In this document: one piece after another, positions 31,570 to 56,267 of the stretch | Position numbering within the stretch: the stretch's first letter is position 1 | Layout of the letters: each line of letters begins with the position of its first letter | Virus record (IMG/VR): IMGVR_UViG_3300038468_000223 | Location: 41,512 to 105,511 of that record | Length of the DNA stretch: 64,000 bases | Origin: a virus | Strand: one strand, 5' to 3' | Position numbers and translations under genes: made by a program | The notes under the pieces: model-generated | Told to the model about the DNA's origin: nothing | Seen by the model: the letters and a program-made list of their open reading frames with translations, nothing else | Database searches by the model: none

Positions 31570-32295
31570 ATGAACGAGAGCGCTCAGCAGCCCAAGAAGA
31601 AGACCATGCGGGTCGTGCAGGTCCACTGCATGGACAAGTCGGTGTGGGGTCTCGGCCAGCCGATCCCGACCCGGCCGGAGACCGTCATCCGCAACATCGT
31701 CGTGGTCAACGACTGCGTCGAGGTCTTCGCGACGGACAACGCCAACGCGATGCAGGTGCCCCACGTCACGCTGTTCCCGCCGCTCGCCATGTGCGTCACC
31801 TCCGTGTGCCCGCTCGAGACCTGGCAGGAGATGATCGCCGACTACGAGCAGATGCAGTTCGCGGTGCAGCTCAACGAGGTGGCCGACCTGCACGGCAGCC
31901 AGTGGCGCGTCGGCGGGGCCGTTCCCGGATCGGAGGTGCCGCTTCGGATCGACCGCATCGTGCGCGAGCTGGGCGACGCCAGCGTCCACATCTTCGTCTC
32001 GCCGCTCCCCGGCAGCGACATGGCGCAGAAGGGGTTCGCCCTGTACTTCCGGCTCATGCCACTGACCGTGACCGCCGCCTCGACGATCCACAACCTCGCC
32101 AAGTCGCGCGAGATCATCACGATGCTCGAGGAGCTGCAGGCCGCCATCGAGGAGCCCGAGGAGGAGGACGACGACGAGGAAGAGGAGGAGGACGAGGAAG
32201 AGGAGGAGGTCGTGCAGGCCGCCGCCGCCCCTCCCGAGACCCCGCCGCTGCCGCCGCCCCCCAACGGAGCCCCCGAGGCCCCCTCCACCAACTGA
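31570..32295 (+). CDS. Hypothetical protein with internal duplication and acidic tail
   Basis: Two W..G..(I/V)P...I..IV repeats; poly-E/D tract. Confidence 0.6.
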   Translation: MNESAQQPKKKTMRVVQVHCMDKSVWGLGQPIPTRPETVIRNIVVVNDCVEVFATDNANAMQVPHVTLFPPLAMCVTSVCPLETWQEMIADYEQMQFAVQLNEVADLHGSQWRVGGAVPGSEVPLRIDRIVRELGDASVHIFVSPLPGSDMAQKGFALYFRLMPLTVTAASTIHNLAKSREIITMLEELQAAIEEPEEEDDDEEEEEDEEEEEVVQAAAAPPETPPLPPPPNGAPEAPSTN

Positions 32296-32304
32296 GAGGA
32301 TCCC

Positions 32305-32631
32305 ATGCCCTCACCCACCACGGCCACGCTCGTCTACACGGTGACGCGCGCGAAGCCGATCAAGATCGCCGACCTCGTCACCGCCGTGGGCAACGTGGTC
32401 CTGACCACCGACGAACTCACGCAGTGCGGCGTGACGCTCAACAGCGACATCACCGCGATGGTCGATGGCGATCACGCCGCGCGCACGATCGTGTTCGATC
32501 TGTCCGCCGACTTCATCGTGCAGTTCCCCGACAACACCGACCAGGCGGCGCCGTTCCGGGGTCTGTTCACCCAGACCCTCTCCGCCGCGCTCAAGACCGT
32601 CGTGGCGGCTGCGGCGCCCGTTCTCGCGTAG
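32305..32631 (+). CDS. Hypothetical protein
   Basis: GAGAGGA SD. Confidence 0.6.
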   Translation: MPSPTTATLVYTVTRAKPIKIADLVTAVGNVVLTTDELTQCGVTLNSDITAMVDGDHAARTIVFDLSADFIVQFPDNTDQAAPFRGLFTQTLSAALKTVVAAAAPVLA

Positions 32632-32639
32632 GAGGCAGC

Positions 32640-34511
32640 ATGGCCAGCCGGAAGAAGGAACCCAAGACGCCGCCCGACTTCGACGTGGATCTCGCGACCG
32701 TGACCGACAAGGTCTTCCCCGAGAGCGTCCCCAAGGAGGCGGACGGGACCGTCGCCGAGGAGGCCGTGATCTCGATCGAGACGGCGAAGAAGATCGGTGC
32801 CCTGAGCGCGGAGAGCGCGCGCGCCAACAAGGAGGCCGCGCGCGTCATCGACCAGAAGCTCGATCGAGTGACGAACGTGGCGTGGAACACGCGCGACGCG
32901 ATGTCGATGTTCGACAACGTGAGGACCCTGTGCGGGACGAGCCAGATCTACGTCCACGTCCACCGCGTGGACCCGGTACCGCCCGTGCAGTTCGATCCCA
33001 TCCGCATGAACAGCTTCCGGGACGCCCCGGAGCTGTACCAGTTCATCAAGAAGAACTGCCACAAGAAGCAGCGGGAGGCGAAGTACGTCCTCTACTTCCG
33101 CGAGGGCGGCAAGGAGCGCGGGCAGGCCGACCTCATCATGCCCGACACCATGGACGAGGAGCCCGGGATGTCACCACCGAACCAGCCACCGTTCTTTCCC
33201 TTCCCGCCGATCTACGGCTACCCGCCGCCCGGGTACGGTGCCCCCGGCTACGGCGGACCTCCGCCGGGCTACGGGGGCCCGCCCCCCGGCTACGGGCCGC
33301 CACCCTGGGGCCCCGCACCCTACGCCCCGCGGTCGCCGGAGCCGCCCCCCGGCGTCGCCGCACCCCCGGCACCCGCCCCGGCCCCGCCGCCCGCCCCCGT
33401 CGCGGGGCCCCCGACCGCGCCCGCCGGGCCCGCCCCGCCCGCACCCTACGGTGTGCCCCCGACGTACGACCCGGTGCACCAACACGTCGCGACGGTGTAC
33501 CAGGAGCTGCAGCGGACGCAGGGTCTGCTGGGTCAGAACCAGCTCCAGCTCGAACGCGCGCTCGCGCGGCTCGAGGCCTTCGAGCAGCACCAGCAGCACC
33601 AGCCGGCCGCGGCGCCCTCGCCGCCGGCGCCGGTGGCGGCGGCGCCCCCGGCTCCGCCCGCGGGGCAGTGGATCTGGAACGCCGCCCGCGGCGCCTACGA
33701 CTGGCAGGTGGCCCCGCCGCCGCCTCCTCCTCCTCCTCCCCCACCGCCTCCGCCTCCTCCGCCGCCGGCTCCCTCGTCGGCGATCTGGGACGCCGCGCGG
33801 CAGCAGTGGACCTACCCGGCCCCGCCGCCGCCTCCTCCTCCTCCCCCTCCACCGCCACCGACGCCGGTCATGACCCAGCAGGTCTGGGACCCGCATCAGC
33901 AGCGATGGGTGGCGAGCGTCGGCGTCAGCGGTCCGCCGGTGCCCCCGCCCGCTCCGCAGATGGCGCCCCCCGCGAGCTTCCTCGAGCAGGCGAAGGAGTT
34001 GGGGTCCGTCGCCCGCGCGCTGAGCAAGACCGTGCACGAGATCCGCGAGGCGACGGTGGAGATGTCGGGGTTCGACGACGACGACGAGGCGCCGCCGGCC
34101 CCACCACCGCCGCCGCCGGCGCCGCCGGAGCCCGGCGTGGCGGCGATGCCGGTCGGCGACTACCAGTACGTGTTCGATCCCAAGACCGGCAACCCCAACA
34201 TCACGGGGACCATCTTCGCGAACGTGAACAAGATCCCCGACCTCCTCAGCGGGCTGGCGACCGCACTCAAGGAGGTGCAGAAGGCGGCGCAGCCGCCCCC
34301 CACGCAGCTCGTGGAGCACGTCCGCGTCGTCCACGAACCCGCTCCACTGCCGCCGCGGCCCGCGCGTCCGGCGGCCCCGCCGGCGCCTCCGCCTCCTCCT
34401 CCACCGCCGCCTGCGGCAGCGGCAGCGGCGGCCCCCGTGCCGCCCACGCCGCCTCCGGCCGCACCGGCTCCGAGCTACATGCCGTCGCTCGACGTTCTCA
34501 ACGATTTCTAG
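32640..34511 (+). CDS. Large proline-rich protein
   Basis: GGAGG SD; PPGY repeats, poly-Pro, three (I/V)W(D/N)....(Q)W repeats. Confidence 0.75.
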   Translation: MASRKKEPKTPPDFDVDLATVTDKVFPESVPKEADGTVAEEAVISIETAKKIGALSAESARANKEAARVIDQKLDRVTNVAWNTRDAMSMFDNVRTLCGTSQIYVHVHRVDPVPPVQFDPIRMNSFRDAPELYQFIKKNCHKKQREAKYVLYFREGGKERGQADLIMPDTMDEEPGMSPPNQPPFFPFPPIYGYPPPGYGAPGYGGPPPGYGGPPPGYGPPPWGPAPYAPRSPEPPPGVAAPPAPAPAPPPAPVAGPPTAPAGPAPPAPYGVPPTYDPVHQHVATVYQELQRTQGLLGQNQLQLERALARLEAFEQHQQHQPAAAPSPPAPVAAAPPAPPAGQWIWNAARGAYDWQVAPPPPPPPPPPPPPPPPPPAPSSAIWDAARQQWTYPAPPPPPPPPPPPPPTPVMTQQVWDPHQQRWVASVGVSGPPVPPPAPQMAPPASFLEQAKELGSVARALSKTVHEIREATVEMSGFDDDDEAPPAPPPPPPAPPEPGVAAMPVGDYQYVFDPKTGNPNITGTIFANVNKIPDLLSGLATALKEVQKAAQPPPTQLVEHVRVVHEPAPLPPRPARPAAPPAPPPPPPPPPAAAAAAAPVPPTPPPAAPAPSYMPSLDVLNDF

Positions 34512-34553
34512 CCAGATCGAGCTGCGTGGTTCGACTGGTGATACAGTCGAGCC

Positions 34554-35828
34554 ATGTACCGCCACGTACATTCGATCGGGCTCGGCGCTTCCGAGTTCGA
34601 TCAAAATCTCACGACCTATTTGACGACGAACGCTCCGCCGGAGGTCAGGCAGGCGATCTCGACGGAGGCGTCGGCCGAGCAGTTCGCCGCGCGCTCTCAA
34701 GCCACGATCGATTCGATGCGCGACATCGCCGAGGGCAAACAGCTCACGGTGGCGCAAGCAACAACGATCCTGACCACTGCCGCGAGCGCGATGGCCTTCG
34801 TCGCTGCAGGAGGCGTCGGATCGATCCTCGCTGGTGCCGGAGCCGCGGCCGCCACGACCGTCGCGCTCGGCGCCGCCGCTTCGGCCGGTGCGGTGATGGC
34901 GGCGATGGTCGCGGTGGTCATCGTCGTGGTTGCGGCCGTCGGATGGGCGCAAGGTGGGACGGGCAAGTGCGGGGACGCCTCGACGATCCCGTCCAGCCCT
35001 ACCGATCCTAGGTGGGTGGAGTTCACGGAATACGGACCAATCGCACAGCCTCGAAATGACTTCGAACGCTGGGCATCTCCAGTTCTAGTTCTGAACCACG
35101 AAATGAACGACAACTGCAGAAGCAGTCTGCCGGACCTTGTGCAGACGCTAGCATCGTTGTGGAATGAGCGGCACGAGGCCACGTCGATCCTGACCTACAT
35201 CGGTTACGACATCGACAAGCTTCCTACTTCAGGCCGATACAATTGGCCTGTCTACCCCAATCCACTCAACATCGTCGAGTTCGACCTGCGTGGTGGATCG
35301 ACACTCGGCGCGCCGAAAAAGATCTCCGTCAATCTCGGCAAGTTCATTCCTACTACACCTGCAGAGAAGTCGTTGCTGGTTGGACAGCTCAAAAAGGTGA
35401 GCCTGGTCGAACAACTAAACCTGAGCACGCCGTCGACGCAGTCTGCACAAACATCAACCGCGTCGAAAGTGATCGCTGGAGTCGCGGTGACCGCAGCGAT
35501 TTCTGCCGCGGCACTTTGGGCGTACGCCTACTACCAGAAGATCACCTTCGGGTCGGCGTTGTACAAGGTGGTGGGGCGCTTCGCGAAAGAGAACCCGATC
35601 GCCGTCGACGTTCCGCGCCGACGCACGTCGAAGGGACGCAGGCTGGCCTATCGCGTCAGACTCGATGCGTCGCCCTCGATGGAGTATGTTCAGGTCATGC
35701 CGGATGGATCAGCGATCCTGTTGCGCCACGGCCACCAGGTTGCGAAGTTCCGGCCTACGACCTACCAGCTCCCGAAGATCCATGCCGGCGACGGCGAGCT
35801 TCTGATCTTCGTCGATCAGCTCATCTGA
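34554..35828 (+). CDS. Membrane protein, putative virion component
   Basis: N-terminal IGLG, two hydrophobic segments, AKENP after the second TM. Confidence 0.7.
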   Translation: MYRHVHSIGLGASEFDQNLTTYLTTNAPPEVRQAISTEASAEQFAARSQATIDSMRDIAEGKQLTVAQATTILTTAASAMAFVAAGGVGSILAGAGAAAATTVALGAAASAGAVMAAMVAVVIVVVAAVGWAQGGTGKCGDASTIPSSPTDPRWVEFTEYGPIAQPRNDFERWASPVLVLNHEMNDNCRSSLPDLVQTLASLWNERHEATSILTYIGYDIDKLPTSGRYNWPVYPNPLNIVEFDLRGGSTLGAPKKISVNLGKFIPTTPAEKSLLVGQLKKVSLVEQLNLSTPSTQSAQTSTASKVIAGVAVTAAISAAALWAYAYYQKITFGSALYKVVGRFAKENPIAVDVPRRRTSKGRRLAYRVRLDASPSMEYVQVMPDGSAILLRHGHQVAKFRPTTYQLPKIHAGDGELLIFVDQLI

Positions 35829-35841
35829 GGAGAACGCCACG

Positions 35842-36582
35842 ATGCCCACGCTCACGCATCCGATCTTCAGCTCGGCGTACAACTTCGTGCAGCAGCAGCC
35901 GGTAGCCGCCGTGCAGCCGCTGCCGCCGACGCAGACGGTGACGACGCCGATCCAGACGCAGTCTCCGTCACCGCCGGTGATGGCGGTGAATCCGCAGGCG
36001 CCGGTCACGGCGGCGGTCCCCAACACGAACGGCCTCACCGAGATTGCGGACCGCCTGCTCGCGATGGACCAGGCGGCAGGAGGGCCGCAGAACATCGCGC
36101 AGAACATCGCGGCGGTCCAGAGCAACACCTCCTTCGGACCCGGGAACCCTCCGGTACGCCTGCTCACGGGGCTGCAGAACACGCTCTACGGCAACCCGAC
36201 CCAGAACCCGACCCAGTACAACGCCGATCAGCTCAAGGCGTCGGCGACGTACCTGCGCGACGTGGCAACGCACATGACGGCGCTCGAGGCGCAGGTGGCG
36301 ACCCTGCAGCAGCAGCTCGCTGCGGCCAACGCCGTCCCCACCACCACGAACGTGACGGTGCCGCAGGCACCGGCGTCGGGGTCGAGCATCAACTGGACCA
36401 CGCTCCTCGTCAGCGTGGGCGTCATCGCGGCGGTCGGCATCGGCGCTTGGTACGTGATGACGCACCGTCGGAAGCCGGCCGGAGTGCGCGAGGAGGAAGA
36501 GGAAGAGGCTCCGCCGCGCGTGATCGGCGGCGAGAACAAGCGCCTGTTCCCGCCGGCGCCGTCGCAGAAGCGGAAGAAGTGA
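35842..36582 (+). CDS. Single-TM putative virion protein
   Basis: GAGGAG SD; coiled coil, TM, basic/acidic tail. Confidence 0.7.
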   Translation: MPTLTHPIFSSAYNFVQQQPVAAVQPLPPTQTVTTPIQTQSPSPPVMAVNPQAPVTAAVPNTNGLTEIADRLLAMDQAAGGPQNIAQNIAAVQSNTSFGPGNPPVRLLTGLQNTLYGNPTQNPTQYNADQLKASATYLRDVATHMTALEAQVATLQQQLAAANAVPTTTNVTVPQAPASGSSINWTTLLVSVGVIAAVGIGAWYVMTHRRKPAGVREEEEEEAPPRVIGGENKRLFPPAPSQKRKK

Positions 36583-36592
36583 GGAGAGGACG

Positions 36593-37324
36593 ATGAGGAA
36601 GATCAAGGCAGCAAAGAAGATCAAACACGGCGCGTACCGCGGCTGGGAAGTGATGGTCATCGACGCGACTGGCGATGGATTCCCCGGATTGTGGTGGGCG
36701 CACGCCAAACCTGCCGGCCATGCCCAATGGGTGATCTCCACCGAGCAGCGTTCATCCGCACAAGCGTTCGCTGTCATCCACCACAAGATCGACAAGATCC
36801 TCGCGCGCGCTGGTTTCCAGAAGAACCCCGTCAGCAACACCGAGACTGCCGTCATGATCGTCCTCGGAGCGGCGGCCGTCGGGGCGCTGCTCTACGCCTT
36901 CTGGCCCAAGTCGACGGCGGCGGCACCCGCCGTCACGCCGGCACCCGCACCGACGCCCGTACCGGCTCCGGTGACCAAGCCGAGCATCCCGGTCGCGACC
37001 AACAAGACGGTGGCCGTCGGTCCCGAGGCCAACGGGCAGACCATCACCCTGAACGTAGGGGACGTCCTCATCGTCCGCCTGCCGCAGCAGTCGGACACGG
37101 GCTACGTCTGGGAGTTCGCCGTCACAGGGACCTCGGTCGCTCCCAACACGAGCTACACCGAGGGCGGTACGGGCCCCGGCGACGTCCAGACGCTGGTGTC
37201 GGTCTTCAACGTCATGAGCCCCGGTTCGACCTTCGTCTCGGCGGTCTCACGCCGCGGCGGCGCGTTCGGCCAGAGCTTCACCGTCGCAGTCAACGTCCCC
37301 TCCACCACCGGCATCGAGGTCTGA
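36593..37324 (+). CDS. TM protein with C-terminal chagasin (I42 cysteine-protease inhibitor)-like domain
   Basis: NGQTITLNVGDVLIVRLPQQSDTGYVW...G.G...F....PG.T.V....RR matches the I42 pattern (NPTTGY.W variant); KNP before TM. Confidence 0.65.
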   Translation: MRKIKAAKKIKHGAYRGWEVMVIDATGDGFPGLWWAHAKPAGHAQWVISTEQRSSAQAFAVIHHKIDKILARAGFQKNPVSNTETAVMIVLGAAAVGALLYAFWPKSTAAAPAVTPAPAPTPVPAPVTKPSIPVATNKTVAVGPEANGQTITLNVGDVLIVRLPQQSDTGYVWEFAVTGTSVAPNTSYTEGGTGPGDVQTLVSVFNVMSPGSTFVSAVSRRGGAFGQSFTVAVNVPSTTGIEV

Positions 37325-37327
37325 TCC

Positions 37328-39466
37328 ATGAGCGGCTTCGCCCCCGGCGTCGACAGCGCCCGCAAGAACCTGAACGGCGTCACGATCACCGAGAAGGCGT
37401 TCCCGCAGAACGCCGCGCACGGGGCGAAGTTCAGTCTGGAGGAGGTCGCCGCTCGCATCCTCAAGGGCGGCGCCGATCCGCGGATCCGCGGGTGGGCAGG
37501 CAAGGCGCTCGTCGAGGCGGGCTCGCCGAGCGACCGCCGGGAGCAGGCGCGTGCGGTGCTCAAGAAGCTGCGCTCGCAGACGGTCTACGTCGCCGATCCC
37601 GTCGGCGTCGAGTTCATCGCCGACGCGAAGTACACGCTCTGCCTCGACGAGCTGGGGCTGTGCCTTCCTGGGGCGGATTGCTTTCCGAAGGGAACGCTCC
37701 TGCTTCGCGACGACCTCGAACTCGTTCCGATCGAGGACATCCAGGTCGGCAACAAGATCTGGGGCTTGGACCAGTGGACGACCGTGCAGGCGAAGGCTTC
37801 CAAGGGCATCCTTGCGATCGATGCCCTCTTCTTGAACAACGGCTCGGTCGTCAAGCTCACCGGCGATCATCACGTCTACGTGGGTCGCTGCGAACAACAT
37901 GGACATGCCTGTTCGTGCAGATGGTCCGAGCGAAAGGAACAGCGCATCCGCGTCTCCGATCTTCGAGAAGGGGACGTGCTTGCGCAGCCCGAACGTGTTC
38001 CGTTCGGAGAAACCCCCATCTGGCGGCTCGGCGGCGATGAGTGGGCGATCTCACCGAATCGGCTGAAAGAAGATCGTGCGCCCGGTCGAATGCTTCGGGT
38101 CAAAGGGATCGAACGCGCGGTGATGGAGGTTCCGTGCTTCGACATCCAGACCGAGGACCACCGCGTCTACCTGCCCGAGCACGACGTGACGGTGAGCAAC
38201 TGCGACGATCTCGCGGTGGCCCTCGGCTCCGGACTGCTCGCCCTCGGCATCCCGGTGCAGGTCGTCGCCCAGTCCTTCGACAACTCGGGCATCCCGTCAC
38301 ACGTCCTCGTCGCCGCCGAGACGAGCCCCGACTACTGGGAGCGCGTCGATCCCTCGTCGCGCACCTACGACGTCGGTCAGTACTACCCCGCCGCTCGCGA
38401 GTGGTGGTTCGACCCTACCGGCGAGATCAAGCTCTCCGACGGCCGGCTGCGCGGCAGGTTCGTCGGCGTCGGGAACCTGCCGGACGTCTTCCCCGGCTAC
38501 CCGGGCACCGGGCTCGGGCAGTACGAGAACGTCTCGTTCCAGATCCCCAACATGACGCCCGAGCCGACGGCGAAGCAGAAGGAGGCCGTCTTCCTCACCG
38601 CGACCGAGCAGCTCTACGCCGCCGTCAACGGGCTCGACCTCGCGGTGACCGGACTGGAGAAGGCCGTCGGGCAGCTCGAGAGCGTACGACAGGTCCTGCG
38701 CCCCAGCGATCCGTTCGACCCCGGTGCGGAGGTGACCAGCGTCTCGCAGTTCCCGCGCGACGGGACGTGGTCGAAGAACATGAGCGCGATCTCGCACTGG
38801 CTGATCGACACGGGCAAGCGGCTCGTGAAGGCCGGCCGCGAGGCGCTCGCCGGCGGCCGGCGCATCTTCCTCGATCAGAAGACGCAGGACGCGTACATCG
38901 AGGGCAACGACTCCGACCCCTTCCGCCTCAACACCATCTTCAAGGTGAACGACGCGGTGCTCGCGTTCGTCAACCCACTCGGCGCCGCAGTCGCCGGGCT
39001 CACCGCGAAGGAAGGTCGCGTCCTCTCCAAGGAGGAGACGGAGGCCGAGCTGCTCGCCGCGCGGTCCAGCACGAGCGCGCAGGGCATGCAGCAAGGGCTC
39101 GGCAACCCCATCATCATCGTCGTCGTCGCCGTGGTCGCCGGCGTCATCGTCACCGGCATCGTCGCGATGCTGATCGTCAAGGAGTGGTGCCACACCGCCG
39201 AGGTGACCGCGATCGAGGCCACCAGGCAGGAGATGATGAAGTGTGTCGCCGCCGGCAGGTGCACACCCGACGACGTCATCAAGATGGAAAAGCAGCAGCA
39301 CGACAACCGCGTCGCCGAAGAGAAGGCCCGGTCCGAGAGCGACTTCTTCTCCAAGCTGGAGAAGATCGCGATCTACATGGCCGTCGGCGGCGCCGTCATC
39401 GCCGGTGCCTACGTCGCGGCCCCCGTCGTGAAGACCTTCGCCGAGAAGTGGAGCCACCGCACCTGA
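37328..39466 (+). CDS. Transglutaminase-like cysteine protease with intein and two C-terminal TM helices
   Basis: YVADP..VE; spliced GADCDDLAV..GS.L..LGIP; SHV; W..VDP (Cys-His-Asp triad). Confidence 0.85.
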   Translation: MSGFAPGVDSARKNLNGVTITEKAFPQNAAHGAKFSLEEVAARILKGGADPRIRGWAGKALVEAGSPSDRREQARAVLKKLRSQTVYVADPVGVEFIADAKYTLCLDELGLCLPGADCFPKGTLLLRDDLELVPIEDIQVGNKIWGLDQWTTVQAKASKGILAIDALFLNNGSVVKLTGDHHVYVGRCEQHGHACSCRWSERKEQRIRVSDLREGDVLAQPERVPFGETPIWRLGGDEWAISPNRLKEDRAPGRMLRVKGIERAVMEVPCFDIQTEDHRVYLPEHDVTVSNCDDLAVALGSGLLALGIPVQVVAQSFDNSGIPSHVLVAAETSPDYWERVDPSSRTYDVGQYYPAAREWWFDPTGEIKLSDGRLRGRFVGVGNLPDVFPGYPGTGLGQYENVSFQIPNMTPEPTAKQKEAVFLTATEQLYAAVNGLDLAVTGLEKAVGQLESVRQVLRPSDPFDPGAEVTSVSQFPRDGTWSKNMSAISHWLIDTGKRLVKAGREALAGGRRIFLDQKTQDAYIEGNDSDPFRLNTIFKVNDAVLAFVNPLGAAVAGLTAKEGRVLSKEETEAELLAARSSTSAQGMQQGLGNPIIIVVVAVVAGVIVTGIVAMLIVKEWCHTAEVTAIEATRQEMMKCVAAGRCTPDDVIKMEKQQHDNRVAEEKARSESDFFSKLEKIAIYMAVGGAVIAGAYVAAPVVKTFAEKWSHRT
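37679..38200 (+). mobile_element. Mini-intein (174 aa, no homing endonuclease)
   Basis: N-terminal CFPKGTLL, PIEDIQVG, block B LTGDH, block F CFDIQTEDH, C-terminal VSN followed by Cys+1. Confidence 0.9.
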
Positions 39467-39531: not shown

Positions 39532-39972
39532 GTGATTTACGTCAAGGGGTCGCACATCAAGTTCGAGCTGGTCTCGGGCGAGATCCTCTCGCTGCCGAAG
39601 TCCTTCGGGATCATCCACGATCAGGAGGGCCAGGACATCCCGCGCTGCGAGGTGTACTTCGGTCCGTTCAAGGTGATCGGGCGCGACGCGGGGCTGACGC
39701 CGGCCGCACGAGCATACTTCGGCGACGCCTATCACCCCGATCGGGTGTCGGTTGACCTACCTGAAGGGTCGTGGAATCCTATCTCCGAAGTGGTGCAGAT
39801 CTTCTACAGGCGTCCGTCGGGGGTCAGAGTCGCCAAGCACACCGGCAAGTACCACCACCCGTTCAAGAAGGTGGCGAGGCCGACGTTGTTGAAGGCGGCC
39901 CACGAGCGCTTCTACAAGTTCGAGATGACGAGCTTCTGCATCATCGATGACCGAGGGTTCGTCTTTCCGTGA
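39532..39972 (+). CDS. Hypothetical protein
   Basis: Real C-terminal part of track ORF 38041-39972; start uncertain. Confidence 0.6.
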   Translation: MIYVKGSHIKFELVSGEILSLPKSFGIIHDQEGQDIPRCEVYFGPFKVIGRDAGLTPAARAYFGDAYHPDRVSVDLPEGSWNPISEVVQIFYRRPSGVRVAKHTGKYHHPFKKVARPTLLKAAHERFYKFEMTSFCIIDDRGFVFP

Positions 39973-42014
39973 AGCCCAAGAGCTACGTCGATGCGATGCG
40001 GAAGTTCCGGGGCGTGAGCAAACACGCCGCGGAGGGTCATCGCCGCCTCGTCGGATTGGCAGAGGGATCGACCTCAAATCCGCTGCGGGTTCCGGCCTCG
40101 TACGATCGTCAAGAGGAACTTCAACGATATTTGACCGAGAACTACGAAAGCTGTATCGTCCAGAAAACTGGTGGTGAGAGTGCTGCCGGTGCGCGCGACA
40201 AGACTCACTGCGCTAGGGTCGCGTGGAAGAGGGCTGAAGAGAGCGGGCGGTTTTCGGACTATCCAGCGTTCCACGGAGGAAGCAGGAACATGTCACGTCG
40301 CAACCTGAAGCCGCGCGCGCGGCGCCACGATCGGTGGGGTCGCTTCGCCGAGGTGATGGAGAGCAAGGCGCAGCGCAAGGCCGCCCGCAAGAAGTCGGAC
40401 AAGGCCGCGCACAAGGCCAAGAAGACGAGCAAGAAGGCCGCTGCCAAGCGCTCCGCGATGCAGGTCAAGGCCTCGAAGACCGCGGCGCAGGCGGAGAAGT
40501 CGTCGGCGATCTCGCGCGGCAAGGCGGAGGCGGCCAAGAAGGCTGCCGCCACCAAGGCGGAGAAGCACGCCAAGCGCGTGGCCGCCGGCAAGAAGGCGGC
40601 CGCCGCCAAGGCGGAGAAGCACGCCAAGCGCGTGGCCGCCGCCAAGAAGGCCGCGGAGACGCGCAAGAAGAACGAAGCCGCGGCTGCCAAGCCGGCGGCG
40701 AAGAACGAAGCCGCGGCTGCCAAGCCGGCGGCGAAAAAGAAGCCGAAGAAGACGGCCGCCAAGAAGCAGGCGAAGAAGGTCAAGAAGGAGAACAAGGCCA
40801 TGGCGCTGACCAACAGGCAGAAGGCGGCTCGGAAGGCCGCGAGGACGCGCGAGAAGAACCGGAAGGCCGAGGAGGAGCGCAAGGCGGCGGCCGCGCGCAA
40901 GCGTGCGCGCAAGGCCAAGGGCGGCGCCAAGAAGAGCAAGGGCACCAAGAAGAGCAAGGGCAAGAAGGGCGGCGCCAAGAAGACCGCCAAGAAGTCGAAG
41001 GGCAAGAAGGGCAAGCGCAAGGCCACCGTCGCCACCGTCCCCGGCACGCGCCGCGTGAAGGTCGGCGGGCACTCGCGCCAGGTCCCGAGCAACATCCGCA
41101 TCACCATCGGCGCCCCGGTGCACGCCCGCAAGGCGGCCAAGCGTCCGGCCAAGCGCAAGGGCGCGCGCGAGGACCTCGTGCTCGAGTCGATGTCGAACCC
41201 GATCTCCGAGGAGTACGCGCTCGAGAACCCGATGACGGGCGGCGAGATGTTCCTCGCGGCGGTCACGGGCGGCCTCGGCATCCTCGCCGCGAGCGGCCTC
41301 GATCGCTACCTCGCGACGCGCGACCAGACGCCGGCGCAGGGCCAGCCCGCGCTGACCCCGGCCGAGCAGGTCGCGTCGCCGCCGGGCATCCTGCGCGTCC
41401 TCGCCCAGGGCGGCATCGCGGCGGCGGCGTTCGTCGGCGCGTACTTCGTCCCGCAACCGATGGGCCGCGCGGCGCTGCAGGGCGCCGGCCTCGGCGCGTT
41501 CTCGCACCTCGTCGGGCAGGCCTTCATGACCTACCTCGTGCCGCGGTTCTTCAAGTCCAACGACACCGCGCGCAAGATGTTCCCCGCCGAGATCGCGGTC
41601 TACGAGCGCCTCAACCCGCCGCAGGCCACGACCACCGGGCAGCAGGGCCTGCCGATGGGCGTCGGCGGGTACCTGCCGCGCCACGGCATGGGCGTCGACC
41701 CCGCCGCCGCCATGATCGTGCGGCCGCAGAACCTCGACTACATGGGTCCGGCGCTGACGCGCAACCCGGTCGCGCCCCCGGCGCCGGCCGCGAACGGCGG
41801 CGGCGGATGTGGCCCGTGCGGCGGGTGCGGGGACCGCATCGAGCAGGGCGTCCCCAACGCGATCGAGAACGTCGCCAACGCCGCCAACGCGCCTGCCTCC
41901 ACGTCCGAGACCCTCTCGAGCGTGATGAGCGCGACGCGCGACGCGGTCTGCAACCCCGGCCTCGCCGGCACGAGCCGCTGGTACAACGCCGTCACCTTCG
42001 CGCCGGAGCACTGA
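39969..42014 (+). CDS. Lys/Ala-rich histone-H1-like putative core protein with ChaB-like N-terminus and membrane C-terminus (possible internal start 40290)
   Basis: About 270 aa of K/A repeats (AEKHAKRVAA x2, KNEAAAAKPAA x2); SNP..ENP followed by hydrophobic helices. Confidence 0.75.
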   Translation: MKPKSYVDAMRKFRGVSKHAAEGHRRLVGLAEGSTSNPLRVPASYDRQEELQRYLTENYESCIVQKTGGESAAGARDKTHCARVAWKRAEESGRFSDYPAFHGGSRNMSRRNLKPRARRHDRWGRFAEVMESKAQRKAARKKSDKAAHKAKKTSKKAAAKRSAMQVKASKTAAQAEKSSAISRGKAEAAKKAAATKAEKHAKRVAAGKKAAAAKAEKHAKRVAAAKKAAETRKKNEAAAAKPAAKNEAAAAKPAAKKKPKKTAAKKQAKKVKKENKAMALTNRQKAARKAARTREKNRKAEEERKAAAARKRARKAKGGAKKSKGTKKSKGKKGGAKKTAKKSKGKKGKRKATVATVPGTRRVKVGGHSRQVPSNIRITIGAPVHARKAAKRPAKRKGAREDLVLESMSNPISEEYALENPMTGGEMFLAAVTGGLGILAASGLDRYLATRDQTPAQGQPALTPAEQVASPPGILRVLAQGGIAAAAFVGAYFVPQPMGRAALQGAGLGAFSHLVGQAFMTYLVPRFFKSNDTARKMFPAEIAVYERLNPPQATTTGQQGLPMGVGGYLPRHGMGVDPAAAMIVRPQNLDYMGPALTRNPVAPPAPAANGGGGCGPCGGCGDRIEQGVPNAIENVANAANAPASTSETLSSVMSATRDAVCNPGLAGTSRWYNAVTFAPEH

Positions 42015-44944: not shown

Positions 44945-46309
44945 ATGACGACCTATCGAGTGGGCATCGGGGAGACTCCGGAGAGCATCGCGCGGCGGTT
45001 CGGCGGCACGACGAAGGCGCTGCTGAACGCGAACCCGCAGGCTCACCGCGTGCGCGACGGCAAGATGACCTTCCTGGGCTTCGGGGCGGGGCAGCAGATC
45101 AAGCTGCCGGCGCAGTGGAGCCGCCGACGCCAGGGCCCCGGCGCCCCCTCCTTCAAGGTGGTCGCCGGCGGGGTCTTCGTCGACCCGCAGATCGCGCTGG
45201 CGGTGTGCCAGGGCGGGTGGAGCGGCGTGCCCTCGAGCTGGCCGTCTGCGATCACACAGCAAGCTGTCCTGATCAACGGTCAGGCGAGCACCGGCGACAT
45301 CAACTACGTCTACTACGACGGCAAGCTCTACGAGTTCACCTCGGGTGGCGGCAACACGTGGATCAGCCGCGTGTGCTCGAGCCCCGTCGCCTCCAAGATC
45401 CCCGGCGCGGGGCAGCAGATCAAGCTGCCGGCGCAGTGGAGCCGCCGACGCCAGGGCCTCGGCGCCCCCTCCTTCAAGGTGGTCGCCGGCGGGGTCTTCG
45501 TCGACCCGCAGATCGCGCTGGCGGTGTGCCAGGGCGGGTGGAGCGGCGTGCCCTCGAGCTGGCCGTCGCCCATGACCGACCAGGCCCGCGCCATCAACGG
45601 GCAGGCCTCGGACGGCGACATCAACTACGTCTACTACGACGGCAAGCTCTACGAGTTCACCAGCCGCTCCGGCGGCGGCTTCTCCATGAACACGTGGATC
45701 AGCCGCGTGTGCTCGAGCCCCGTCGCCTCCAAGATCCCCGGCGTCGTCCTCTCCAGCACCGGGCCCAACCCCACCACCCCAGTGACCCCCGTCGTTCTGC
45801 CAGTCAACTACAAGATCCCCGGCTCGACGACCACGCCGACGACGACGACCTCCCCTTCGTCGTCGAACGCGGTGCCGATCGCGATCGGCATCGCGGCGCT
45901 CGCCGCGGGCGTCGGGCTCGCGTACCTCGTCTCTAGGAAGAAGAAGGAAGAGGAGATGGGGGTGGTCCCGGCGACGGTGCCGGCGACGGAGGAGTGCGGA
46001 GCCTGCGCCGAGTCGTACGAGAACCCGGTGCTGACGTTGCAATGGAGTCGTGCCACCGGAAGTGACAACGTGTGGCGCGGCACCGGAAGGGTGAGTGCTA
46101 CGACATACGTATACGTTGTCACGGAATGGCAGGGTGGGTTCTATGTGACACGGTACGACGATGAGTACGACGATGAGTACCCAGTGGGTACGCGTTTCGC
46201 GAGTTTGGTGGCGGCGCAACAAGCGGCCGAAGCCGATTTTCAGCATCTGCGTCGCAGGGTCGCGGCCATAAAGGGAGCCCATGCTCGACGCGCAGCTCGT
46301 CGTCACTGA
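44945..46309 (+). CDS. LysM-like domain protein with tandem 107-aa repeat, TM helix and ENP-linked C-terminal module
   Basis: YRVGIGETPESIARRFG...LLNANP...GQQIKLP. Confidence 0.75.
   Translation: MTTYRVGIGETPESIARRFGGTTKALLNANPQAHRVRDGKMTFLGFGAGQQIKLPAQWSRRRQGPGAPSFKVVAGGVFVDPQIALAVCQGGWSGVPSSWPSAITQQAVLINGQASTGDINYVYYDGKLYEFTSGGGNTWISRVCSSPVASKIPGAGQQIKLPAQWSRRRQGLGAPSFKVVAGGVFVDPQIALAVCQGGWSGVPSSWPSPMTDQARAINGQASDGDINYVYYDGKLYEFTSRSGGGFSMNTWISRVCSSPVASKIPGVVLSSTGPNPTTPVTPVVLPVNYKIPGSTTTPTTTTSPSSSNAVPIAIGIAALAAGVGLAYLVSRKKKEEEMGVVPATVPATEECGACAESYENPVLTLQWSRATGSDNVWRGTGRVSATTYVYVVTEWQGGFYVTRYDDEYDDEYPVGTRFASLVAAQQAAEADFQHLRRRVAAIKGAHARRAARRH
45086..45742 (+). repeat. In-frame tandem duplication, period 321 bp
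   Basis: 45086-45406 and 45407-45742 nearly identical. Confidence 0.95.
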
Positions 46310-53169: not shown

Positions 53170-53547
53170 GTGGTCGGCAAGGTCGTCGCGGCAGCAGCGA
53201 TCGGGGGCGTCACCGGGTGGCTGCTCGAGAACCTGCTGTTCGGGCGGCGCAACTCGAACCTGTTCGGCGGCCGGGAGGTGCCCTTCCTGCCGGTCTACGC
53301 CGTGGGGGCGGCCGCGGTCGTCGCCGCCGCCCCGCACCTGCGCGAGCTGCCCGCGGTCGCGCGCGCGGGCGTCTACGCGGGCGGCCTCTCGCTCCTCGAA
53401 CTCGCGGCCTGCGGCGCGGACCGCGAGCTTGGCCCCGCGTCCTGGGACTACGGCAACGGGGGCTGCGTAGACGTCCCCCACGCCATCACCTGGGGCGCGC
53501 TCGGCCTCGCCCTCGACGCCCTCACGACCAGTGAGCCTCGACGTTAG
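53170..53547 (+). CDS. CmpB/TMEM229-like membrane protein
   Basis: GWLLE, PFLPVYA.G, WDY, WG motifs. Confidence 0.6.
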   Translation: MVGKVVAAAAIGGVTGWLLENLLFGRRNSNLFGGREVPFLPVYAVGAAAVVAAAPHLRELPAVARAGVYAGGLSLLELAACGADRELGPASWDYGNGGCVDVPHAITWGALGLALDALTTSEPRR

Positions 53548-53555: not shown

Positions 53556-54435
53556 ATGGATCCGATTCAGCAGACGAATCAGACGGCCGAAGAGGCGTTG
53601 TTCCTGGCACAGATGATGATGGCGCGCCTGTCGGGACGATCGGGCTCGAAGCTCTTCGTCTACCGCCCCGGCGGAGCGACGCTGCGAGACCAGAACGTCT
53701 TCGCCGACTGGAACGACCTCGAAGAGGTCCGGTCGCAGACCGTCGGTCCGAAGATCGTCCAGATCGACGACACCATCGTGTCGCCGGCAGTGATTCCTGT
53801 CGGCGTCTACGACATGGAGTCGACGACCCTCGTCGGCGACCTCGAGCGCGTGCACGCCGGCGTCAACGTGCTCTGCGACATCTCCGACGGCGCTCGTCTC
53901 GAGAACCTCGGCGACGTCGCGAACGGGCTCACCCTCACGTCGCACAGCACGACGGTGCCGGTGCACACGATGTCGGCAAACGACTTGCTCATCGTCGAGC
54001 GCGGAGCGGTCGTCCAGAACGCGCCGGGGTCGACGGTGTTCTTCAAGCTGCCGAACGGTGCGCAGGCGATCATCGTCTCGTACCTCGGCGGTCAGCTCGG
54101 CGGTGGGACGGGCGTCCCCTTCCTCAGCATCGACGCGGGCGGCGTCGCCACCGTCCTCCTCCTTCTCGGTGCTCGCCAACAACGTCATCGTGGGCGGTGG
54201 CACGGCCGGCATCATCGTGACGTCGCAGAGCGCGTTCGTTCAGACGCCGTTCCCGATCGTGCAGGGAGGGATCGCCGCACTCACCACGACGATCTACAGC
54301 TTCGCCAACTACACCGGCTTCCAGGGGCTGAACGCGGCTCCGTGGACGGCGCCGCCCCCGACGAACGTCGAAGACGCGATCAATCGCATGGCGGCGCTGC
54401 TTCAGGTCTTGAACGGTGGCGCGACCATTCCGTGA
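53556..54435 (+). CDS. Structural protein split by a +1 frameshift near 54160
   Basis: Frame 53556 is protein-like to ..ATVLL; frame 54058 continues FSVLANN...W..PPPTNVEDAINRMAA. Confidence 0.6.
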
Positions 54436-54447: not shown

Positions 54448-54723
54448 ATGAAGAAACTCATCGCGATCGTGTTCACCTCCGTCCTCGTGTTCGCTCAGGG
54501 TTGTACCAAGGAGCAACTCACGAAGGCCGAGCAGACCGTCTACGACATGCGGGCCGACCAGTTCGCCTGCGTCCTCGTCGCGAACCTCACGAGCGAGGAC
54601 GACGTCATGAAGTTCTGCCAGCTCGAGGAGCGCCTGCGGCCGCAGGTGCATCAGGTCTTCGTCGGCAAGGCGGCCGCCCGGCACGCCGAGGAGGCCGCGG
54701 CGGCGGCGCACAAGGGGCAGTGA
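54448..54723 (+). CDS. Lipoprotein
   Basis: MKKLIAIVF...AQGC lipobox. Confidence 0.7.
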   Translation: MKKLIAIVFTSVLVFAQGCTKEQLTKAEQTVYDMRADQFACVLVANLTSEDDVMKFCQLEERLRPQVHQVFVGKAAARHAEEAAAAAHKGQ

Positions 54724-55448
54724 TGGGACGCCGCGGGTTCGGACTCAAGCTGGAGGCGCCGGTAGGGTTGCCGCTGCGGCCGCACCTCGGCGCCGCCGGC
54801 GATCCGATTCCGTCATCGGCCTCCATCGAAGACCTCGTCGACAAGGTCCGCGATCAGGGTCCGACCGAGGCGTGCGTGGCCTTCTGGCTCGGCGGCTCCC
54901 TCGAGATCGAGGCGCGCGCGCAGGGCATCGACCTCGGCGGCGAGATCTCGCGCCGCGGCCTGTACACGATGGCGCGCGAAGAGGAGGGGCTCTCCATCGT
55001 CGACACGGGGAGTCTCCCCTCGCTCGCCGTCTTTTCGGCGCAGAAGCGCGGCATCGTCTCCGAGCTGCGCTGGCCGTGGTCGGTGGCCGACATCAACGAG
55101 CTTTTGCCCTGGGACGTCTTCCAGCACGCGGTGAGGGTGACCGGCATCTACCGCGCCGAGGATCTCGGCGCCGTGCAGCTCGCGATCGTCAAGCGCCGCC
55201 CCGTCGGCTTCGACATGGTCGTGGACGAGTCCTACTACCACTACACGGGCGGCCTCTACGTGCCCGGCGGCAGGGTCCTCGGGCGGCACATGCAGACGAT
55301 CGTCGGCTACGAGCCCGGTCGCTACCGCGTGCTCGGGTCCTGGGGGCCCGACTTCGGTGAGAAGGGGTACGCCTGGGTTCCGGAGAGCATCGTCGACATC
55401 GCGACGAGCCGCTACGTCGTGAGCATCGCTCCGCAGGGGGTCGAATGA
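54723..55448 (+). CDS. Papain-like (C1A) cysteine peptidase
   Basis: VRDQGPTEACVAF, GRHMQTIVGY, GSWG.DFGEKGY (Gly in place of the usual Asn). Confidence 0.85.
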   Translation: MGRRGFGLKLEAPVGLPLRPHLGAAGDPIPSSASIEDLVDKVRDQGPTEACVAFWLGGSLEIEARAQGIDLGGEISRRGLYTMAREEEGLSIVDTGSLPSLAVFSAQKRGIVSELRWPWSVADINELLPWDVFQHAVRVTGIYRAEDLGAVQLAIVKRRPVGFDMVVDESYYHYTGGLYVPGGRVLGRHMQTIVGYEPGRYRVLGSWGPDFGEKGYAWVPESIVDIATSRYVVSIAPQGVE

Positions 55449-55717
55449 AGACGATCGTTCTCGTCCTGCTCCTCGTCGTCGCTTGCGCGCCGTCGCCGGC
55501 CCCTCCGCCGCCGCTCGTACTCAGTGGGACGCCCTGCGAGCGGGCCTGCACGAACCTGCGCGCCGCGGGCTGCCCCGAGGGCGACGAGGTCAAGGGGCGC
55601 ACGTGCGAGACCGTCTGCGAGGAGAACGCGACGCTGCTCAACGTGAGCTGCATCGCGAGCGTCGAGCCGAAGCCGGAGAAGATCCGCGCCTGCGGGCGTG
55701 TTCGCTGCATGAAGTGA
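55445..55717 (+). CDS. Cys-rich lipoprotein
   Basis: VVAC lipobox; CERAC.NL...GC. Confidence 0.7.
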   Translation: MKTIVLVLLLVVACAPSPAPPPPLVLSGTPCERACTNLRAAGCPEGDEVKGRTCETVCEENATLLNVSCIASVEPKPEKIRACGRVRCMK

Positions 55718-55721
55718 CCCC

Positions 55722-56267
55722 ATGACCTGGACCAAGCTCACCCCCGAGGCGCCCATCTCGACGTTCGAGGGACCGATGTACCCGCTCGTGATGGGGCGCA
55801 CCTACCGTGGCACACTCACGCTTCCCGAGTTCAGGAGCGGGGTGCCGCAAACCTACGAGCCGTACCTGATCTCGGCCCTGACGGCGGCCTTCGCCGCGTA
55901 CGGCAACCCGACGCTCTGGCAGGCCGATCAGCAGCCCAAGGACTGGCCGGCGGAAGACGACGTGCCGACGACGGCGTCCGTCATCCGGTTCCAGCTCGTG
56001 ACGTTCCGAGATGGGGTCTTGCGAGGGCGCCTCCCGATCCCGCTCCCCAACACGCAGCCGGCACGGATCAACTACCTCTGGCGCCTCGACGAGACGACGC
56101 CCGTGACGCCGGCGCCGACTGCGCCCGCGACGCCGACCACGCCGCCAGCGACGCCGGTGAAGGGCTCGGGCGGGTGGGGCGCACTCTTCGCGCTCGCCGC
56201 GGTCGTCGCCGGGACCGGGGCGGTGGTGATGTACGTTCGATCTCAGCGACGTCTTCGACCCGCGTGA
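55722..56267 (+). CDS. C-terminally TM-anchored putative virion protein
   Basis: GRTYRGTLTLP/PKDWP, P/T linker, TM. Confidence 0.65.
   Translation: MTWTKLTPEAPISTFEGPMYPLVMGRTYRGTLTLPEFRSGVPQTYEPYLISALTAAFAAYGNPTLWQADQQPKDWPAEDDVPTTASVIRFQLVTFRDGVLRGRLPIPLPNTQPARINYLWRLDETTPVTPAPTAPATPTTPPATPVKGSGGWGALFALAAVVAGTGAVVMYVRSQRRLRPA

Follow-up and report, generated by a model that had tools for sequence, protein, structure and literature searches.

A candidate virion-formation gene block in an apparently undescribed lineage of large, probably tailless bacterial viruses

Introduction

What kind of particle does a bacterial virus build when its genome exceeds 100 kb and no terminase, portal or tail gene can be recognised in it? 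As far as we are aware, every bacterial virus so far described with a genome near 100 kb has a tail, and no described prokaryotic virus that combines jelly-roll proteins with a membrane exceeds ~30 kb. On balance we favour the reading that the 25-kb gene block analysed here contains the virion-formation module of an undescribed lineage of dsDNA viruses of bacteria whose circular maps measure 105-127 kb; these viruses would not be tailed and would assemble a jelly-roll shell without a packaging motor. We found no description of such a lineage in the literature, and its relatives are labelled as tailed phages by marker-based virus classifiers. If this reading is true, a widespread 105-127 kb lineage with jelly-roll proteins and no tail genes breaks both size rules, and the autonomy of large genomes (replisome, tRNAs, CRISPR-like systems) is not bound to the HK97/terminase particle.

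The genome and its co-oriented gene block

The window, that is, the whole stretch of 64,000 nucleotides that was analysed, makes up the final 64 kb of a 105.4-kb virus genome that was recovered from a wetland metagenome and closes into a circle. The genome was assembled as one contig of 105,511 bp whose ends overlap by 127 bp, giving a circular map of ~105,384 bp. It is complete, a closed circle whose junction is spanned by an endolysin gene. The original prediction of a genome larger than 64 kb with its own replisome and tRNA array is thus borne out: PolA, a primase-polymerase, an AAA_25 helicase-like protein, a UvrD helicase, ThyX and a dNMP kinase are encoded, along with 23 predicted tRNA genes. 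An integrase, a TnpB/Cas12f-like gene and a CRISPR-like array are also present, and PolA is the only ORF above 800 aa.

GC3 frame analysis places ~35 tightly packed genes between 31570 and 56267, every one on the plus strand, in agreement with the 25-kb co-oriented block first described. Treating all 25 kb as a morphogenesis module, as was done then, is too generous: conservation in relatives is confined to the 5' 14 kb (31.5-45 kb), and the 10 kb at the 3' end is specific to the lineage and contains enzymes, namely a DSP-type phosphatase and a papain-family peptidase. As for the count of about 15 single-TM proteins, a Kyte-Doolittle scan finds a hydrophobic 19-mer in 17 block proteins, of which ~15 are credible as TM proteins and ~12 are single-pass.

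Relatives and the conserved core

The lineage extends over 270 protein clusters and dozens of 50-200 kb contigs, found in metagenomes of wetlands and other sources. When four complete genomes are compared all against all in six frames, only seven families prove common to them; all seven fall within window positions 30785-44927, and none is an ATPase. Gene neighbourhoods were drawn from 40 IMG/VR loci. The features of this part of the window are as follows.

30785..31549, plus strand: RadC-like JAB-domain protein, 254 aa (Pfam RadC, E 5e-29)
31570..32295, plus strand: 241-aa protein whose C-terminus is strongly acidic (D/E-rich) and rich in Pro (translation)
32640..34511, plus strand: 623-aa core protein, with long poly-Pro/Pro-Ala tracts after a conserved N-terminal domain (translation)
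34554..37324, plus strand: three membrane proteins of 424, 246 and 243 aa (TM scan)
37328..39466, plus strand: 712-aa core protein with a transglutaminase-like Cys-His-Asp protease domain split by a predicted intein, and a C-terminal extension that holds two strong TM helices
37679..38197, plus strand: predicted mini-intein, residues 118-290 of the 712-aa protein, directly before the catalytic Cys (alignment)
39532..39972, plus strand: 146-aa conserved small protein, start uncertain (39448-39532) (in genomes G002 and G003 and 8 loci)
39969..42014, plus strand: 681-aa basic protein (composition and sequence)
42079..43413, plus strand: 444-aa major capsid protein candidate, a predicted jelly-roll-type beta-sandwich with large loop insertions
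43500..44102, plus strand: 200-aa conserved beta-rich protein, second shell-protein candidate (38 of 40 loci)
44106..44927, plus strand: 273-aa conserved protein, predicted single jelly roll, penton/vertex candidate

The RadC-like protein is the first of the seven core families and occurs in genomes G000-G003 and in 20 of the 40 loci. The 241-aa protein has no family match; an acidic-tailed family of ~155 aa holds its position in 21 loci. The 623-aa family is common to all four genomes, with members of ~600 aa in 23 loci, and is possibly a scaffold or linker. The three membrane proteins that follow are not conserved in relatives, and the 243-aa one carries a weak chagasin-like Inhibitor_I42 domain (Pfam E 9.6e-6, just under the cut-off). 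We further note that GIY-YIG homing endonucleases lie among the 200/273-aa genes in two relatives. Inteins and homing endonucleases tend to insert in conserved genes, and their occurrence here suggests that the block is under strong conservation. The seven-gene core offers markers with which such viruses could be found and reclassified.

Three beta-rich proteins as candidates for the shell

The 444-aa gene is found at every related locus, always flanked by the gene for the basic protein on one side and the 200/273-aa genes on the other. The 444-, 200- and 273-aa genes also have the strongest codon bias in the block, with GC3 values of 0.99, 0.97 and 0.95, respectively. The original prediction had singled out these three as beta-rich; their coordinates stand, and AF2 models analysed with DSSP are mostly beta for the 444- and 273-aa proteins. 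In Foldseek searches of the PDB with these two models, all of the matches listed are viral jelly-roll capsid proteins, with no HK97 protein among them, and no match reaches E <= 0.001 in either the PDB or BFVD. The structural check proposed at the outset returned, for these two models, jelly-roll matches short of that threshold. The best VIA matches are the HHIV-2 penton, SGIV MCP, PRD1 P3, SPV1 and STIV. Matches to double-barrel proteins cover only one of the two barrels and extend over the whole 444-aa model (residues 58-414), a pattern more suggestive of one barrel bearing large loops than of a double jelly roll.

The Atlas model of the 200-aa protein (pTM 0.70) has unnamed viral proteins and jelly-roll domains as neighbours, and the nearest Pfam-bearing clusters, P2_N/P2_C at 0.79, are a lead only. 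The ESM Atlas model of the 273-aa protein is unusable (pLDDT 0.28), and a complex prediction for the 444-, 273- and 200-aa proteins scored 0.00, which speaks neither for nor against binding. Sequence searches place none of them in a described family: no structural candidate matches Pfam or PHROGs, a tblastn search of 50,697 phage records with the 444-aa protein returns nothing, and Pfam finds no capsid domain in 24 distant members of its family. Profiles of the 444-, 200- and 273-aa and protease families find nothing significant among PDB sequences, and hhalign detects no relationship between the three beta-rich families.

Packaging and tail genes

No head, packaging or tail family is matched among ~120 ORFs scanned against PHROGs or Pfam, apart from "tape measure" PHROG matches that all coincide with endolysin or peptidase domains. 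Six-frame HMM searches, which had positive controls in named genomes, were negative for TerL_ATPase, Phage_capsid and Phage_portal (one Pfam portal family) in five genomes and for Terminase_6N in the 105.4-kb genome. FtsK_SpoIIIE and Pox_A32, searched in this genome and five relatives, gave one sub-threshold match of 11.4 bits. Terminase, portal, HK97 capsid and tail genes (tape measure, tube, sheath, baseplate), as well as an FtsK/A32 ATPase, likewise went undetected in up to five related genomes of 109-127 kb. What had been said of the block, that no terminase, portal, HK97 capsid or tail gene is recognisable, is thus the same across the genome, and a search of the full genome for an FtsK/HerA/A32 ATPase as opposed to TerL/portal found neither. 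No conserved P-loop protein was found; Walker A motifs are confined to replication/recombination proteins and one membrane protein without Walker B.

Several candidates for the missing functions were considered and rejected. The 546- and 488-aa proteins (22574-25943), suggested as terminase and portal by size alone, are paralogous Gly/Ala/Asn-rich repeat proteins that contain no P-loops and are not conserved in relatives. A minus-strand operon predicted to be highly expressed (genome 38554-42113), considered as a sheath/tube set, encodes five products that are all TM proteins, including the 413-aa membrane protein whose Walker-A-like GPTLGGKS is the one without Walker B. The families that only the three relatives have in common are recombination genes (AAA_24, a PD-(D/E)XK nuclease), an integrase and GIY-YIG endonucleases, and none of them serves packaging.

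These results bear first on a strict PRD1/PM2- or sphaerolipovirus-type virion, icosahedral with an internal membrane, in which an FtsK/HerA-type packaging ATPase has gone undetected or is supplied by the host. We consider this unlikely. An FtsK/HerA-superfamily ATPase characterises Tectiliviricetes, Tectiviridae and Corticoviridae (PRD1, PM2) included, and none was detected in six genomes by HMM, nor is any ATPase common to the genomes. Those families have 10-18 kb genomes and a double-jelly-roll capsid protein, whereas the 444-aa model points to a single barrel, and there is no sequence similarity. Tectivirus and sphaerolipovirus genomes are linear and protein-primed, unlike the circular 105.4-kb map here, with its gene across the junction and replication by PolA and a primase-polymerase, and the genome is 3.5 to 10 times their size. 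Sphaerolipoviridae and other vertical single-beta-barrel viruses (HHIV-2, HCIV-1, SH1, P23-77) are characterised by two neighbouring single-jelly-roll capsid genes together with a single-jelly-roll penton protein. Published surveys of double-jelly-roll prokaryotic viruses are not known to include a virus of 105-127 kb.

Slightly less probable again is a highly divergent member of Caudoviricetes, whose hallmark genes would lie beyond profile detection and whose jelly-roll proteins would serve as decoration, cement or fibre. A large terminase may indeed have diverged too far to be detected. As a rule, few phage genes are better conserved or easier to detect than those for terminase and portal, and six-frame HMMs, PHROGs and Pfam picked up neither in as many as five complete genomes of 105-127 kb. 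A stronger point is that genomes whose 444-aa proteins are 45% identical have no ATPase or other large protein in common. There is also no tape-measure-sized gene or sheath/tube set, and the one other operon predicted to be highly expressed encodes membrane proteins. Finally, the best-conserved and most codon-biased protein, at 444 aa, is modelled as a beta-sandwich with nothing like HK97's long spine helix.

The basic protein and the membrane proteins

The Lys-rich core protein of the original prediction is the 681-aa product, with 12.3% Lys, 19.5% Ala and 21% K+R. It runs from an N-terminal module through a histone-H1-like K/A-rich stretch (~130-400) and Gly/Ala-rich hydrophobic segments (~425-520) to a Cys-rich C-terminus; the N-terminal module recurs in 52508-53158 (E 4e-13). 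Homologues that are likewise basic and hydrophobic immediately precede the 444-aa gene in 30-32 loci and in four of four complete genomes. We propose that this protein may condense DNA while anchored in a membrane.

Such an arrangement would also suit a non-icosahedral enveloped or pleomorphic virus, with the membrane outermost, the basic protein as nucleoprotein and the jelly rolls as matrix or spikes. The lack of a packaging ATPase, the many TM proteins and the predicted membrane anchor of the DNA-binding protein all fit this arrangement, and LysM-type and repeat proteins could serve as surface adhesins. We nonetheless regard it as improbable: the three proteins that lead in conservation and in predicted expression look like soluble jelly rolls, have no TM segment and best match shell and penton proteins, pentamer-forming ones included, and the only enveloped dsDNA viruses of bacteria that we know of are plasmaviruses of ~12 kb.

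We give least credence to a non-viral origin, in which a large circular plasmid or an integrative element would use the conserved block to make a system of beta-sandwich proteins for secretion or for the cell surface. The circular assembly with its integrase, TnpB/Cas12f-like gene and CRISPR-like array, the missing packaging machinery and the presence of four relatives in bacterial MAG bins could be fitted to this reading; against it stand the endolysins, the 23 tRNA genes, the nucleotide-metabolism and replisome genes, the extreme codon bias of three beta-sandwich genes linked to a protease and a proposed DNA-condensing protein, and the 36 related contigs listed as viral in IMG/VR, five of them rated complete by CheckV. 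The contigs in those MAGs are short, at 2.6-17 kb, and are spread over four unrelated bins, a pattern that points to binning noise. Judged by its gene content (endolysins, tRNA array, nucleotide metabolism), the element is a lytic-capable virus and not a plasmid. The bins were also considered as a source for the host and set aside, their labels being inconsistent (two Acidimicrobiales, one Binatia, one Polyangiaceae).

A transglutaminase-like protease interrupted by a predicted intein

The 712-aa family is present in 33 of 40 loci and in four of four complete genomes. PF01841 matches 18 of 20 family members (best E 2.2e-7), the first member scoring 29.4 bits against a cut-off of 23, and C107, H141 and D157 are invariant in the family alignment. 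The protein is thus, by sequence, a member of the transglutaminase-like superfamily with a predicted Cys-His-Asp triad; its two TM helices lie at residues 595-613 and 680-698. The copy in the window escapes Pfam because an intein splits the domain. Most relatives are without the insertion and read an uninterrupted GxD↓C (the arrow marks the junction), and in locus L043 an intein ends (…VSN↓C) at the same site. Within the alignment, residues 118-290 are unique to the copy in the window; this insertion starts with CFPKGT, has LTGDHH at its middle and ends in VSN↓C. Its penultimate residue is Ser, where His is usual, and its Pfam Hint match is weak (E 0.01); on these landmarks we assign it to the Hint superfamily as a predicted intein.

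G[LVIMF]G motifs are enriched in the block (32 observed against 14.2 +/- 3.6 expected) and not elsewhere, which suggests proteolytic maturation. One of them is an invariant GLG at residues 20-22 of the 444-aa protein.

Proposed assembly and comparison with known systems

From the anatomy of the block we infer a virion that would contain lipid, within an icosahedral shell. The 681-aa histone-H1-like protein would condense the genome on or inside a virus-modified membrane populated by the many small TM proteins, and the three presumably abundant, jelly-roll-like proteins would form the protein shell, in which the 444-aa protein would be the major capsomer and the 273-aa protein would occupy the vertices in the manner of a penton. 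The 712-aa Cys protease would mature structural proteins, probably at G-x-G motifs such as the GLG near the 444-aa N-terminus. Since no terminase or FtsK/HerA-type ATPase is found in any genome examined, the shell is most likely built round a pre-condensed nucleoprotein-membrane core, in the manner of SPV1, and not filled by a motor. If a packaging ATPase is indeed absent, whether a 100-kb genome can be encapsidated with no motor would become open to direct test. The earlier idea of an undescribed lineage of large lipid-containing phages is supported in part, the evidence for its lipid component being indirect, namely the ~15 predicted TM proteins of the block.

SPV1 combines single-jelly-roll shell proteins, an inner membrane, a VP1-DNA nucleoprotein core and a circular genome (PMC8459092). 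This member of Portogloboviridae, a family also marked by the lack of a packaging ATPase, infects hyperthermophilic archaea and has a 20-kb genome, whereas the genome described here is five times larger and encodes a replisome and tRNAs of its own. The two share no sequence similarity, and the structural match is within noise. Unlike in SPV1, the basic protein here is itself predicted to be membrane-anchored, and a Cys protease is part of the core.

Adenovirus, ASFV and poxvirus likewise carry a papain-fold cysteine protease in the morphogenesis module, and short Gly-containing motifs at the termini or domain borders of structural proteins; protease-matured Bamfordvirae also have a basic core protein that condenses DNA, as proposed here. 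The adenovirus protease cuts (M/L/I)xGG↓x or (M/L/I)xGx↓G, the ASFV protease GG↓x and the poxvirus protease AG↓x. The protease here differs in being transglutaminase-like (PF01841) and not adenain/Ulp1, its cleavage is a prediction, and the host is bacterial.

A bolder and clearly less likely reading, which we put forward tentatively, is that these viruses are the first of a group of bacterial viruses at the rank of realm or kingdom, with 100-kb-class membrane particles, several unrelated single-jelly-roll shell proteins, a membrane-tethered histone-like condenser, motor-free assembly and a transglutaminase-fold protease. They would then be a bacterial counterpart of the SPV1 architecture with giant-phage-like autonomy (replisome, tRNAs, CRISPR-like array).

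The 3' part of the block

The genes downstream of the conserved core are the following.

44945..46309, plus strand: 454-aa protein that has a LysM-like motif at its N-terminus (borderline, Pfam LysM E 3.9e-4), is internally duplicated in tandem and carries a single TM helix
46322..53547, plus strand: ~17 small genes, mostly lineage-specific, nine with credible TM helices (TM scan)
50386-50859, plus strand: DSP-type phosphatase (DSPc E 9e-5, under the cut-off)
50834-51358, plus strand: coiled-coil protein
53556..54435, plus strand: Gly-rich repeat protein (first part, phrog_5596 E 1.3e-11)
54723..55448, plus strand: papain-family (C1) cysteine peptidase, 241 aa (Pfam Peptidase_C1 E 2.2e-7, 31.6 bits, above the cut-off)
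55445..56267, plus strand: two small TM proteins that end the block just 5' of the tRNA array (TM scan)

LysM+TM families are also found in relatives, and the 454-aa protein possibly binds the host cell wall. The genes of 46322-53547 show almost no conservation among relatives. The Gly-rich repeat protein is possibly a beta-helix; phrog_5596 is a family of unknown function, and the frame plot and translations show the coding signal shifting frame near 54100-54150. The tRNA array begins at 56622.

The circular genome and its co-oriented gene block

The contig is a virus record of 105,511 bp from wetland metagenomes (sequencing-run data), and the window is its last 64 kb. Because its first 127 bases recur at its end and a GH25-type endolysin gene spans the contig-end junction, the genome is circularly closed at about 105.4 kb; its G+C content is 67%, and CheckV puts its completeness at 64% despite this closure. 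The original prediction of a genome exceeding 64 kb with its own replisome and tRNA array is borne out, with a PolA-UDG fusion, a primase-polymerase, an AAA_25 helicase-like protein, a UvrD helicase, ThyX and a dNMP kinase encoded upstream of the block (31570-56267) and an array of 21 tRNA genes downstream. At 27499-30729, the 1076-aa DNA polymerase A is a fusion that carries four additional N-terminal parts: DUF4326, a YspA-type SLOG domain, a uracil-DNA-glycosylase-superfamily domain and a 3'-5' exonuclease.

GC3 frame analysis resolves the block into about 35 tightly spaced genes, every one on the plus strand. Codon bias is highest in the genes for the 444-, 200- and 273-aa proteins (GC3 0.99, 0.97 and 0.95), and about 15 products have credible TM helices, about 12 of them single-pass. 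The frames, composition and TM counts thus confirm the earlier description of a co-oriented 25-kb block with a Lys-rich protein, these three genes and about 15 TM products.

A conserved core of seven families

All 97 close relatives of the 444-aa protein are annotated "hypothetical", and many are on contigs of 50-200 kb; at 50% identity the family makes up 270 clusters in a set of 1.84 billion representatives. Of 36 related contigs in IMG/VR, five (109-127 kb) are complete according to CheckV, and automatic taxonomy attaches a Uroviricota label to some related clusters. Around the 444-aa gene, the 712-aa family, the basic protein and the 444-, 200- and 273-aa proteins are conserved in 32-40 of 40 loci. 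When all six-frame ORFs of four genomes (this one and three relatives fetched whole) are compared, only seven families are common to all, none of them an ATPase, and all lie within window 30785-44927.

Families present in four of four genomes (window coordinates)
RadC-like JAB protein
32640-34511, plus strand, Pro-rich 623-aa protein
37328-39466, plus strand, 712-aa transglutaminase-like protease family
39969-42014, plus strand, basic protein (681 aa here)
42079-43413, plus strand, 444-aa protein
43500-44102, plus strand, 200-aa protein
44106-44927, plus strand, 273-aa protein

Recombination genes, an integrase and GIY-YIG endonucleases are common to the three relatives only. GIY-YIG homing-endonuclease genes sit amid the 200-/273-aa homologues in two relatives (G001, 47542-48711; G002, 42300-43292), and a third copy lies elsewhere in the remaining one (G003, 81067-81987). 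Homing elements and inteins tend to insert in conserved genes, so the GIY-YIG genes, together with the intein described below, suggest strong conservation of the capsid block. Its 3' 10 kb, by contrast with 30.8-45 kb, are not conserved, and encode a DSP-type phosphatase and a papain-family peptidase as well as a frame-change gene, so the earlier reading of all 25 kb as a morphogenesis module should be narrowed to a core at 30.8-45 kb.

Shell candidates, basic protein and protease

An AF2 model of the 444-aa protein, built on a 67-sequence alignment, is confident and beta-rich (pLDDT 84.7, pTM 0.82). Foldseek returned no significant match for it; the PDB matches listed, none significant, are all viral jelly-roll capsid proteins. 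The 200-aa protein has an Atlas model (pTM 0.70) with a beta-sandwich, whose neighbours are unnamed viral proteins. Its nearest Pfam-bearing clusters carry P2_N/P2_C, the domain pair of the PM2 coat protein, at a score that makes this a lead only.

In the 681-aa protein (12% Lys, 20% Ala), a histone-H1-like AKKAA stretch (about residues 130-400) precedes hydrophobic segments rich in Gly and Ala. The protein shares a 66-aa N-terminal module (39969-40270) with a 216-aa TM protein (52508-52700; 41% identity, E 4e-13), and in both the module is followed by a basic stretch and then a membrane anchor.

PF01841 (transglutaminase-like) matches 18 of 20 members of the 712-aa family, with invariant Cys, His and Asp. 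Relatives are about 190-270 aa long; the 712-aa protein carries a fused C-terminal extension with two strong TM helices, and residues 118-290 (37679-38197, about 173 aa) form an insertion missing from most relatives. The insertion starts with CFPKGT, contains LTGDHH and ends in VSN|C directly before the catalytic Cys, its penultimate residue being Ser, not His. Judged by these sequence signatures, a mini-intein sits at the active site; a homologous intein end with the same junction is present in one related locus (L043).

The motif G[LVIMF]G occurs 32 times in the block against 14.2 ± 3.6 expected (maximum 27 in 300 shuffles), and is not enriched in the rest of the genome (31 observed, 34.6 expected). 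Several copies read G-L-G-(Q/A/N)-P and lie close to termini or directly before TM anchors. In the 444-aa protein, G20 and G22 lie within a disordered N-terminal arm and are invariant in 67 homologues, and a GVG at residue 380 of the 712-aa protein falls near the end point of the relatives' shorter proteins. Given a conserved papain-fold protease in the core and this enrichment, it is reasonable to infer a proteolytic maturation in which the core protease would cleave structural proteins at G[LVIMF]G motifs.

Packaging genes and the nature of the virus

The larger block proteins have no Pfam or PHROGs match. Across about 120 ORFs of the whole genome, PHROGs and Pfam gave no head, packaging or tail family other than tape-measure PHROGs, whose matches adjoin endolysin and peptidase matches; the families matched belong only to replication, recombination, nucleotide metabolism, methylases, HNH, endolysin and peptidase. 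HMMs were also run in six frames, every search having positive controls in named genomes, and all were negative: Terminase_6N in this genome, TerL_ATPase, Phage_portal and Phage_capsid each on five genomes, and FtsK_SpoIIIE and Pox_A32 in this genome and five relatives, where a sub-threshold 11-bit match was the sole hit. P-loop motifs are confined to proteins of replication or recombination. The failure to recognise a terminase, portal, HK97 capsid or tail gene in the window thus extends genome-wide; the rest of the contig had been proposed as the place to look for an FtsK/A32 packaging ATPase or a TerL/portal, and HMMs found neither type. The absence of a packaging motor is the least expected result, since the capsid candidates are 45% identical between genomes and a conserved terminase or FtsK-type motor should be detectable at such distances.

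The conserved set comprises a basic protein proposed to condense DNA while anchored to the membrane, a putative protease, three probably abundant proteins with predicted jelly-roll folds and many small TM proteins, on a circular map with no recognisable packaging motor. On balance these genomes probably belong to large, tailless, membrane-associated phages of the jelly-roll kind, a so far undescribed lineage that does without a packaging ATPase as well. The original prediction of a tailless, membrane-containing lineage is in part supported and is sharpened to this reading. The closest described virus appears to be Sulfolobus polyhedral virus 1 (SPV1, Portogloboviridae), through likeness of architecture and not membership; SPV1 is not known to have a packaging ATPase. 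It has a single-jelly-roll outer shell, an inner lipid layer with sub-capsomer proteins, a VP1-DNA nucleoprotein core and a circular genome (PMC8459092). The two share no sequence similarity, their hosts belong to different domains and the SPV1 genome is one fifth the size of this one.

A strict PRD1- or sphaerolipovirus-type virus with a hidden ATPase is unlikely, as the packaging ATPase that defines PRD1/PM2-type and sphaerolipovirus-type viruses was not found, and the linear protein-primed genome of tectiviruses and sphaerolipoviruses is not matched by the circular one here. A hyper-divergent tailed phage seems improbable in view of the terminase, portal and tail genes not found. The same genes could belong to an enveloped non-icosahedral virus, which we doubt, or to a non-viral element, which is very improbable.

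Other genes in and near the block

A papain-family (C1) cysteine peptidase (54723-55448) and a TM protein with a chagasin-like (I42) domain, matched just below the Pfam cut-off (36593-37324), are both encoded in the block. I42 is an inhibitor family for C1 peptidases, and the two could be an enzyme-inhibitor pair. In the Gly-rich repeat gene (53556-54435), the frame from 53556 stays open until 55448, while at a CTCCTCCTTCTC run, near 54100-54150, the GC3 coding signal shifts to the +1 frame, in which the sensible protein runs on to 54435; a programmed +1 frameshift or else an indel of the assembly accounts for the shift. Amid TM-protein genes, 50386-50859 encodes a putative dual-specificity phosphatase, a small protein that has a CX5R motif (CWKGRNRS) and matches Pfam DSPc weakly. 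Within the LysM-like TM protein (44945-46309), about 110 aa are duplicated in tandem almost perfectly; the repeat unit starts at GAGQQIKLPAQWSRRRQG and contains a Cys-containing domain.

Two paralogous Gly/Ala/Asn-rich proteins of 546 aa (22574-24214) and 488 aa (24477-25943) have a 215-aa N-terminal domain in common (31% identity, E 1e-20) and differ in their C-terminal parts, a pattern that, on sequence grounds, would suit interchangeable receptor-binding spikes with one type of anchoring domain. Neither is conserved in the relatives or matches anything in PDB, Pfam or PHROGs. On the minus strand, genome 36844-42113 (its last gene reaching window 3-602) is a very highly codon-biased operon (GC3 0.93-0.99) for five membrane proteins of 413, 105, 149, 154 and 292 aa, the 105-aa one holin-like in appearance with three TM helices; the 413-aa protein alone has a homologue, which is in a single relative. 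A plus-strand gene for a 487-aa TM-anchored protein adjoins the operon.

ARAGORN calls a tRNA with anticodon TTA ('Stop') adjoining tRNA-Arg(TCG) on the minus strand (950-1103) and one with anticodon TCA ('SeC') within the main array (58512-58584), both possible suppressor tRNAs. Outside the window, genome 3731-5668 encodes a 645-aa TnpB/Cas12f-like protein (OrfB_IS605 and Cas12f1-like TNB domains) adjoining a repeat array, with a tyrosine integrase nearby (genome 7528-8520); the virus may therefore be temperate, with a miniature CRISPR-like system aboard.
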